Assembly (NCBI RefSeq): GCF_053078305.1
Contig: NZ_CP166879.1
Reading direction: 5' to 3' (one strand)
Length of the DNA stretch: 64,000 nt
Shown piece by piece: positions 18,001 through 21,000 of the stretch. A program made the position numbers. How positions within the stretch are numbered: position 1 is the stretch's first letter; each line of letters begins with the position of its first letter.

Positions 18001-21000
18001 CCTTCCCTGACGGACAGGAATATAATTTTTCTTGCAGAACATGCTAATTGCTTTTTCTGCATTAAGAACTCTCCCTTCCGTCACCTTATCTGCAAGTGAG
18101 GGGTATTTGTCTGCAGACTCCAGCAGTGTACGCTTCAGTTCTGTCGCTGTTGCACGGGGATTACATGAGACCATCGCTGCCAGAACGCCGGAAACTATAG
18201 CTGTTGCTTCCGAGGTTCCACTACCGATCCCCGTTTTTCCATCTGGTCTGAGGAATGTAATATTCTGTCCCGGTGCGGCAATATCAACCCAGCCGTTTCC
18301 GAACCGACTTCCGGTGACCCCTCCACCATGCAATACAGGTGTTTCTCCTTTCCGGTACTGTGCCAGAGCTGCCACTCTTATCACAGGATCCTGCTTTTTA
18401 TTCACACTGCTGACCGGATGGTAAGCCGCAGGCCATATTCTCTGCTGAGCACTCAGTTTTCGTATATCTGCGCCATCATTACCCACTGCCGCAACAATTA
18501 ATCGCTCATTATTCCGGCCCATACGGGAAAGCAGTTCGGACCAGACCGATGCGGAAGATATCCCCTTCTGGCCTCCCGATATATTAATGATTTTCTCTTC
18601 TCCTGGTGCAAGAAAAACATTTGACATAATGCTTTCAGTTGCTCTAATCCATGAGTCCTGTACACCGTCAGGAATAACCCTTCTGCTGGATATCAGTGCA
18701 TGAGGATAAACACCATAAACCTCATGACGTGAGGCAATGAGTGAAGCCATGGCAGTACCATGAATATATAAAGCTTCAGGCTCTTTTACCGGGAATGGCG
18801 AACCATCCTGAGTAAAACTGAATTTGGCAAATTCGCTGTCGCTGAGGCCTCCTACAAATGCCACTCCGGAATCAACAACAGATACGACAACCGGGGTATT
18901 TTTGTCTGTGAGCGACATGGTTGTTTCTGTCAGACCAATTGCATCAAAATACCATGGTTTTTCCGCCCTGACTGACACTGAGATAAAAAGCAGGAACAGA
19001 ATATGCAGCCGTAAATTTTTCAGCACAATATCCTCCAGTGGTACAAATAAAAAGTATTGCTGGTCAATATGTTACAGGGATATCACATCTGAAATATCCT
19101 GTCTTCAGTAAAAGATAAACAATCACTATCAATAAAGCGAGTGAAGTCTCTCCCGAAACATTCATTTTTATATTTGGTTTTTTCATGGAGGGGGTTCACC
19201 CAATAACTTACCAATATCCATTATGGTACTTCGTACCTGGACAGCAATATCTGTGAACACGCTATTTGCCCGGTCGTCATGGGACTGAATGTTTGTTCAC
19301 TGATGGAAGGAAAACGCGCGGCACAGATATGAACCCAAACGAATGTAACTCTCTGCAGATATCCTCCTGGCAGAGTTGTTACCTCTTGAGAAATTTACCT
19401 CTGGAGAATGTGTCAATGCCACGATCTTTGACCGTTATAGTGCTGACAAATGAGCGACACCTGTCGTCATAACCAGTGGTCCAGAGTTGAACGTCTGACG
19501 ACAGGAAATGAGTCAGAGCAGTAACCATACGGGTTGACAACGGGACAGTGCCTGGGTCAGTCGGGAGTCATTCCCTGGAGCACTCCTTATATCACCTGCC
19601 ATCAATGCCTGTGTCAGTACTTCAGGGCCTGACGTAAGCTCCTGCCACGATTGCCATCACTATTTTTATGTATTCGATAAGAAATCTTCATCATGCATGA
19701 TCGATTTTGTCGATCGATTCGATCGATTTTTCTCTTTTTACCCTGTCTTTTGCATAGCTTTAGAATAAGCAACCACGTTTATCGTTCGGGGAAAGTGATA
19801 GCGGAGATAACTGAAATGAAAAAGATTATTGCGGTTTCAGCGCTTGCTGTGGTGGGCATGTTTTCAGGCCAGGCCCTGGCTGATAGAGGCAAAACAGGCT
19901 TTTATATGACCGGTAAAGCTGGTGCTTCGGTTGTGACTCAGACTGACCAGCGCTTTCGTCAGGACTTTGGGGACGATGTTTATAAGTATAAGGGCGGCGA
20001 TAAGAACGATACGGTATTCGGTGCCGGCCTTGCGGTGGGCTATGATTTTTATCAGCATTACAATGTTCCTGTGCGCACGGAAGTGGAATTCTATGGCCGC
20101 GGAGCTGCGGACTCCCGTTATACACTGGATACATGGTACTCTCCGATGGTCGGTGGTGGTCGGGAAGACACACAGAACAGGCTCAGTGTGAATACTCTGA
20201 TGGTGAATACGTATTATGACTTCAGAAACAGCAGTGCATTCACCAGCAGTGCATTCACTCCATGGGTGTCTGTTGGACTGGGTTATGCACGGATACATCA
20301 TAAGGCAACATATACTGATACCTCCTGGAATAAATCTGGTGAGGTGAGCAATTTTTCTGCGTTGCATTACCCGGGATATGATAACAATTTTGCATGGAGT
20401 TTTGGGGCAGGTGTCCGCTATGACGTAACCCCGGATATCGCTCTGGACCTCAGCTATCGCTATCTTGATGCAGGTGATGCCAGTGTGAGTTACAAGGATG
20501 AGTGGGGCGATAAATATAAATCAGAAGTTGATGTTAAAAGTCATGACATCATGCTTGGTGTGACTTATAACTTCTGACGAAACTACTCCTGAAAGATAAT
20601 AATTACCTGTCTTCTGTAATTAAACGGAAACTCCCTGCCGTAATTATACTGCAGGGTTGTCTGTTATCTGCTTTACAGGATATTTCTGTTTTTCTTATTA
20701 TTTTATTCTCTTCATAATAATGTTGCCGATATACTCCGATGAATATCAGAAAACTGTTTTGTCCGGACAACACACCACGGATTTTATTGTTTTTATTCTT
20801 TTTTGTTATTTCTGTCATAACCACAATTGCATGCGGATACACTGAGAAGAATGCCACCGGGAATGTGTTGCTGCTGTTCCTTCTTCTGCTCCTTGCACAC
20901 AGAAATACCCTTACATCCATTACAGCTCTGTTATTTCTGTTCTGTTGTGCACTGTATGCGCCTGCGGGTATGACGTACGGTAAAATCAACAACAGTTTTA

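Follow-up and report, generated by a model that had tools for sequence, protein, structure and literature searches.

We describe here a cluster of three Dam methylation sites (GATC) that lies in front of a tia-family gene in a window of 64,000 nt from contig NZ_CP166879.1. All positions are given in the numbering of that whole window. The cluster sits inside a 790-bp divergent spacer between subA, encoded on the minus strand (17983-19026), and the tia-family gene, which encodes an outer membrane protein (OMP) and whose start codon is 92-117 bp downstream of the cluster. The three sites are found at 19699-19702, 19712-19715 and 19721-19724, with site starts 13 and 9 bp apart, in the context ...catgcatGATCGATTttgtcGATCGATTcGATCGATTtttctc.... 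The initial annotation of this DNA had reported three GATC sites at 19699-19724, packed into an ATCGATT repeat upstream of tia, and both its coordinates and its description are exact. The gene name is correct in the family sense: the encoded protein is 91% identical to the protein that RefSeq names Tia in ATCC 11775. Its identity is 70% to the OMP of enteroaggregative E. coli (EAEC) 042 and 65% to that of UTI89; RefSeq labels both only "outer membrane protein", and we take them to be Hra1 and Hek, respectively. An NCBIfam scan of the protein gave a sub-threshold match to an Adr adhesin model only and returned no Tia-specific model. Tia, Hek and Hra1 are adhesins/invasins of enterotoxigenic (ETEC), Shiga toxin-producing (STEC), enteroaggregative, uropathogenic (UPEC) and meningitis strains.

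The features of the locus are given one per line, with the strand where there is one; std is the Salmonella fimbrial operon whose upstream activating sequence (UAS) is bound by the LysR-type regulator HdfR.

19653-19815, plus strand: conserved regulatory module that accompanies genes of the tia/hek/hra1 type; other genomes are homologous from about 19653-19662 onward
19699-19702: GATC-1, the promoter-distal Dam site; invariant in 19 haplotypes; its counterpart, std GATC-1, is dispensable for HdfR binding (PMC6735912)
19712-19715: GATC-2, the central Dam site; invariant; its counterpart, std GATC-2, is needed for HdfR binding (PMC6735912)
19721-19724: GATC-3, the promoter-proximal Dam site; invariant in tia/hek/hra1 haplotypes; its counterpart, std GATC-3, is needed for HdfR binding (PMC6735912)
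19699-19726: predicted operator block of 28 bp, GATCGATTTTGTCGATCGATTCGATCGA; delimited by conservation and aligning with the Salmonella std UAS
19700-19714: LysR-type dyad ATC-N9-GAT (ATCGATTTTGTCGAT), read from the sequence
19710-19726: palindrome TCGATCGA-T-TCGATCGA, from the sequence and from tandem-repeat and hairpin scans
19737-19742, plus strand: -35-like hexamer TTTACC, from a promoter scan; conserved in alignments
19761-19766, plus strand: -10-like hexamer TAGAAT, from a promoter scan; position fixed across alleles
19803-19806, plus strand: Shine-Dalgarno sequence GGAG, read from the sequence; GGAGAT..TGAAATG is conserved
19816-20577, plus strand: tia-family (Tia/Hek/Hra1) outer membrane adhesin/invasin gene, 253 aa; ATG at 19816, stop at 20577

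Each of the three GATC sites opens one copy of the octamer GATCGATT. The ATCGATT repeat is thus real; with steps of 13 and 9 bp between its copies, it is not strictly tandem. Tandem Repeats Finder identified a 9-bp unit, TCGATCGAT, present in 2.1 copies at 19710-19728, and the last two octamers form a perfect 9-bp tandem. This tandem coincides with the 17-bp palindrome, which holds GATC-2 and GATC-3. A scan of the spacer found a sole sigma-70-like site, the promoter-like TTTACC-18-TAGAAT (19737-19766), located 13-38 bp downstream of the cluster, and from it we predict a transcription start at ~19773. The cluster would then lie ~50-75 bp upstream of the start, with the centre of the dyad ATC-N9-GAT at ~66 bp and that of the palindrome at ~55 bp. 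A distance of ~55-66 bp upstream of the start is the usual position of a LysR-type activator. A long open reading frame (ORF; 19693-20577) spans the cluster as well; we rejected a coding explanation, since the upstream part of this ORF has indels between alleles and the RefSeq start is MKK.

We assessed whether the cluster stands out within the window. GATC is depleted across it, with 151 sites observed compared to 264 +/- 13 expected from shuffles, and the lower-G+C part from 12000 to 31000 holds only 12 sites, three of which form the cluster. The nearest other sites are at 19423 and 23206, the closer one 276 bp away. No second triplet within 26 bp is found in the window, and the next tightest spans 61 bp. 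When 151 sites were placed at random in 64 kb, a triplet within 26 bp appeared in 16% of trials (P ~0.16 per window), so that the triplet count alone is not significant at the level of the window and is weak evidence. That no second such triplet exists, that GATC is depleted and that sites are scarce around the cluster all speak against chance; what decides the matter is the conservation of the cluster across genomes.

The segment that runs from ~19653 to the start codon (query 627-804) recurs ahead of genes of the tia/hek/hra1 type, with 83-89% identity, in 1,431 of 5,426 complete E. coli genomes, and a 42-nt core was detected in 1,626 of the 5,426 (~30%). We aligned seven sequences, of which six come from complete genomes: the block GATCGATTTT[G/A]TCGATCGATTCGATCGA is the same in all seven and the flanks are not; the proteins encoded by these seven and by two further divergent alleles are only 65-91% identical. 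We next scanned metagenomes with a pattern anchored on the flanks alone, in which no GATC was demanded in order to avoid bias. This yielded 103 instances in 21 sequence variants, and all three GATC sites together with the two-unit repeat are present in 102 of the 103. Among the 19 full-length haplotypes, none of the 12 GATC columns is variable, compared to 19 of 39 other unconstrained columns (Fisher p = 0.0017), and the 28-nt block has three variable columns of 28, against 16 of the 23 flanking free columns. The position of the -10-like TA[A/G]AAT is fixed in 102/102 metagenome instances. Read from these alignments, the element is a conserved cis-regulatory block joined to a conserved promoter, and the 28-bp block is very probably a protein-binding operator.

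The module is also found in other settings. The 13/9 cluster with TAGAAT 39 bp downstream of GATC-3 stands before an unrelated 133-aa gene in nine complete genomes, a modularity that we count in favour of a regulatory switch. The 133-aa protein has a signal-peptide-like N-terminus, and in F3_13_1_3 (locus L236, 1504-2056) its gene comes directly after a GTPase gene, the same position that agn43 has after yeeP in CP4-44 of K-12. In UTI89-type strains (locus L006, 1543-3039) a distance of ~750 bp, with a 122-aa ORF in it, separates the GATC module from the hek-type OMP gene downstream. The tia-like ATG is mutated there (GAGCTTAA), and the region in front of the OMP gene is a different one without GATC. 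Of 102 metagenome instances, 32 are arranged in this way.

The closest match to the layout of the cluster is the std UAS of Salmonella. There, three GATC sites lie within 25 bp at -242, -229 and -220, that is, with 13/9 spacing; purified HdfR, a LysR-type protein, binds unmethylated std DNA only and shields the sites from Dam, with GATC-2 and GATC-3 required for binding and GATC-1 dispensable. Expression of std is bistable, StdOFF cells being methylated and StdON cells partly unmethylated (PMC6735912). We reached std by starting at idi and following exact-protein look-ups as far as a Salmonella chromosome (CP074257.1, locus L233). Its GATC sites at 17567, 17580 and 17589 have the 13/9 spacing and the same orientation to the gene as in tia, and the std numbers of the paper correspond to the distance to the stdA ATG within 3 nt. 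Alignment of the std sequence ACGATCATAATCATCGATCGTATCGATCTATTTTTATTG with the tia sequence ATGATCGATTTTGTCGATCGATTCGATCGATTTTTCTCT gave 26/39 identities overall and 19/22 over 19710-19731, which comprises the GATC-2/3 palindrome and the T-run and aligns with the part of the std UAS that HdfR needs for binding. In a joint alignment std has TA.AA in the register of the tia -10, and TA.AA is invariant. In the same Salmonella locus (15872-17805) the std regulatory region is preceded by an Ail/Lom-type OMP gene and a YfdX gene, both in the same orientation. The std cluster, too, thus has a small beta-barrel OMP gene nearby, and this gene is not a downstream target of the cluster.

The two systems thus share a 13/9 triple GATC in 25-26 bp, a 9-bp periodic ATCGATC unit followed by a T-run, and a downstream gene product that is a horizontally acquired surface adhesin. 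They differ in that tia encodes a single beta-barrel OMP adhesin and std a chaperone-usher fimbrial operon, in the sequence between GATC-1 and GATC-2, and in the host, which for tia is E. coli, where the module lies on several pathogenicity islands. The candidate regulator is present in this host: hdfR, a core gene of E. coli, was found in 5,425 of 5,426 genomes. Over residues 1-100, which include the winged helix-turn-helix domain, the E. coli and Salmonella proteins differ only at positions 24, 59 and 73. E. coli HdfR would be expected to have the same DNA-binding specificity as its Salmonella counterpart. We also searched the genome collection with the pattern GATC-N8-CGATCG-N3-CGATCG; this gave at least 120 chance matches in G+C-rich genomes, with no Salmonella or Escherichia among the matches listed.

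Taken together, these data lead us to propose, tentatively and with a probability a little under one half, that the cluster is a Dam-sensitive LysR-type operator beside the conserved tia-family promoter, with HdfR as the favoured regulator and OxyR as its rival. The parts of this proposal differ in strength. That binding is sensitive to Dam methylation and produces epigenetic heterogeneity has slightly better than an even chance. HdfR is the best candidate for the regulator because the std UAS has the same three-site layout, and its involvement is possible, with the balance leaning somewhat against it. In the mechanism that we envisage, a LysR-type tetramer, preferably of HdfR, would bind the operator only when the GATC adenines are unmethylated and would then activate the adjacent weak or sub-optimal promoter (TTTACC, 18-bp spacer). 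Methylation of the three sites by Dam would block binding and leave the gene OFF. After replication, regulator and Dam would compete for the sites, and a bound regulator would shield them, so that ON and OFF lineages might be inherited. The outcome would be bistable, phase-variable expression of the tia-family gene. SeqA may add repression on the hemimethylated cluster; such reinforcement is possible because GATC-1 and GATC-3 are 22 bp, or two helical turns, apart. Reportedly, SeqA was described as a repressor of std by Jakomin in 2008.

The initial annotation had proposed a methylation-dependent adhesin switch of the pap or agn43 type. By comparison alone, with invariant GATC sites, a conserved promoter and the geometry and core of std, the switch itself has gained ground as a prediction of function; its models have not, since std with HdfR is closer than either pap or agn43.

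Several observations weigh against this proposal. The match to std extends beyond the GATC bases, but with only modest significance: 14 of 27 non-GATC positions match, compared to 7.8 +/- 2.5 in other registers of the same spacer (p ~0.02). The std switch also requires StdE, StdF and a StdF site farther upstream. Judged from the annotation, no StdE/StdF-like partners are present within 8 kb of the tia cluster, and conservation starts only ~45 bp upstream of GATC-1, with no equivalent of the StdF site. The std UAS is 220-242 bp from the reference point of the paper (PMC6735912), compared to ~50-75 bp between the tia cluster and its predicted start, and the two architectures may thus differ. Sequence resembling the operator was not found upstream of K-12 flhDC or in the hdfR-maoP spacer, both expected HdfR targets; the best palindrome match in these two regions is 10/17, which is uninformative. 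In two divergent OMP alleles, CUWW11 (locus L237, 1508-1521) and FORC_082 (locus L238, 1501-1514), GATA replaces GATC-3. Finally, work on Hek, Hra1 and Tia has dealt with expressed proteins, and one would therefore not expect an OFF state as tight as in std. The CUWW11 and FORC_082 alleles, with 65-70% protein identity, retain GATC-1 and GATC-2.

Among the alternatives, the one that survives best is an ordinary operator, in which the palindrome TCGATCGA-T-TCGATCGA is read by its own regulator, or the block by some other core or island factor, and the GATC sites are always fully methylated with no epigenetic switching. Conservation proves selection on the sequence and not on its methylation, and the palindrome alone would account for the invariant GATC bases within it. 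GATC-1, however, lies outside the palindrome and is equally invariant, and GATC is otherwise rare in the island. The match to a proven three-site Dam layout would also have to be accidental, for which we estimate ~1/120 for the pair of spacings multiplied by the p ~0.02 of the flanks. We regard an operator of this kind as unlikely.

A second alternative retains the switch and changes the protein: as at agn43, Mu mom and gtr, OxyR and not HdfR would bind the unmethylated cluster in competition with Dam. If OxyR were the factor, the direction of control could be opposite. The 20-mer GATCGATTTTGTCGATCGAT (19699-19718), which contains the dyad, has 17/20 positions in common with the core of the OxyR site at agn43. 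The half-site consensus ATAGnTnnnAnCTAT is matched 7/10 at 19700-19714 by manual count; for the second half-site, in the 22-bp register that it should occupy, the match is poor (5/10). Over the 37-bp consensus, 19691-19727 scores 13/20 and covers all three GATC sites, compared to 14/20 for the proven agn43 site, and a score of at least 13/20 is reached by only 22 of ~128,000 strand-positions in the window. The std cluster, for which HdfR is the demonstrated binder, nevertheless scores 12/20 on the same consensus, which suggests that such scores may merely reflect LysR-type dyads in general. The 13/9 geometry differs from the 19/13 of agn43 and the 18/13 of Mu mom and equals that of std exactly. 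On this evidence we consider OxyR an improbable regulator of the cluster.

The comparison with the individual OxyR systems is likewise mixed. Like tia, agn43 (flu) has three GATC sites in a short LysR-type operator, with a 13-bp GATC pair and control of an autoaggregating surface adhesin, and its K-12 copy comes just after the yeeP GTPase gene, as does the related module in UTI89 and F3_13_1_3. The GATC sites of agn43 lie at the transcription start or beyond it, and OxyR acts there as a repressor. The tia cluster, in contrast, is upstream of the predicted -35, and its OxyR score is one point lower than that of agn43. As a model, agn43 thus fits in one 13-bp GATC pair and fails in its 19/13 spacing otherwise. 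In Mu mom the GATC sites are upstream of the promoter, as in tia, and methylation prevents OxyR binding. Mu mom differs from tia in its 18/13 spacing and in its target, a DNA-modification operon of the phage that depends on the C activator. The 25 nt at 19699-19723 are 92% identical to a region upstream of com in a Mu-like prophage, and this region resembles the Mu mom operator. In strain CI5 (locus L239, 1490-1525) it reads GATCGTTTTTGTCGATCGATTTGAT, the match being to the GATC-1/2 pair of tia. The prophage copy has only two GATC sites; on the other strand the element has the look of a tia-type operator with a degenerate third site. In gtr, the OxyR half-sites each hold a GATC pair 13 bp apart, the distance between GATC-1 and GATC-2 at tia. 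Salmonella/P22 gtr and opvAB resemble tia in having such pairs in single LysR-type dimer sites upstream of the promoter, where activation is possible. They differ in having four GATC sites in two separated pairs, with overlapping sites that are alternately occupied, compared to the one compact three-site cluster of tia.

The pap model, with Lrp, was rejected on geometry. At pap, two GATC sites ~102 bp apart lie within two sets of Lrp sites, with papI and papB in addition; the tia cluster packs three sites into 26 bp, and pap, one of the models named in the initial annotation, does not fit it. What tia would share with pap is Dam-dependent, heritable ON/OFF control of an adhesin, which for tia is predicted. 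No papI- or papB-like genes are annotated within 8 kb of the cluster. In UPEC, the tia module adjoins a pap operon.

Two further explanations are far weaker. An intrinsic terminator or insulator hairpin that blocks read-through from upstream genes could draw on a scan that calls a stem of 8 bp at 19709-19727 with a T-run behind it, and on the location of the UPEC module downstream of papG. The hairpin is weak, however (centroid -9.1 and minimum free energy -10 kcal/mol, z = -1.9), only four of its stem pairs are G-C, and other alleles and std are predicted to pair differently. In the hra1 clade AAAAC takes the place of the T-run, and in the window the upstream gene is divergent, leaving nothing to terminate; a terminator is thus very unlikely. 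Slipped-strand variation, suggested in the initial annotation, would have gain or loss of ATCGATT or 9-bp units alter promoter geometry, and despite two perfect 9-bp units and one natural single-unit variant we give it next to no chance: there are only 2.1 copies, this number is shared by all complete-genome alleles that we examined and by 102 of the 103 instances from metagenomes, and the variant looks like decay and not switching. This sole copy-number variant (metagenome contig OGQX01001992.1, 1455-1526; locus L049) has one 9-bp unit and two GATC sites, and its OMP gene has a frameshifted C-terminal tail without the usual C-terminal YNF.

A broader reading goes beyond the tia locus. The 28-bp element might be a portable epigenetic switch cassette common to Salmonella std and to several E. 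coli island genes, namely tia, hek, hra1 and the gene for at least one small secreted protein unrelated to them, through which HdfR, Dam and SeqA would give a whole set of horizontally acquired surface proteins a single heritable ON/OFF control. We consider this doubtful. If it were true, E. coli would have its first HdfR/Dam switch, present in ~30% of genomes, and a non-fimbrial beta-barrel adhesin would for the first time come under such control. Should the narrower proposal of a Dam-sensitive operator at tia be true, cultures would be mixtures of expressing and non-expressing cells, which would explain variable adhesion and autoaggregation and would bear on the use of Tia/Hek/Hra1 as targets for vaccines or diagnosis. 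The switch, known from a single fimbrial operon of Salmonella and nowhere else, would extend to ~1,600 of 5,426 complete E. coli genomes, and HdfR would gain a clear virulence-related target in E. coli. In the full-text library that we searched, no paper connects tia, hek or hra1 with Dam, GATC, OxyR or HdfR and none has the operator sequence, and we found no study of Tia/Hek/Hra1 regulation.

We also examined the surroundings of the gene. The spacer is 99.9% identical to that of S19-141 (NZ_CP075640.1, GATC cluster near 2,609,380-2,609,410), the closest complete genome, whose annotation of the neighbourhood reads subB, subA, outer membrane protein, phosphoethanolamine transferase, tetratricopeptide repeat (TPR) protein and integrase. 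The island is thus a subtilase-toxin (subAB) island. Inside the tia-like gene, a perfect 15-bp tandem duplication (CAGCAGTGCATTCAC x2, 20229-20258) inserts SSAFT, and the product has 253 aa in the window compared to 248 aa for the otherwise 99% identical protein of S19-141. The phosphoethanolamine transferase gene (20739-22241 in the window) follows the OMP gene at ~150-180 bp in every complete-genome allele examined and is truncated in one genome. A terminator-like hairpin, CCCTGC...GCAGGG (20633-20656), lies between the two genes. The OMP and phosphoethanolamine transferase genes move together as one cassette, and the switch is possibly common to both. ARAGORN detected no tRNA gene in the window, and the same island adjoins tRNA-Phe in S19-141. 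Similarity to other subAB-island genomes, which includes an IS3 transposase, ends near 26730, indicating that the right-hand island junction differs in the window.

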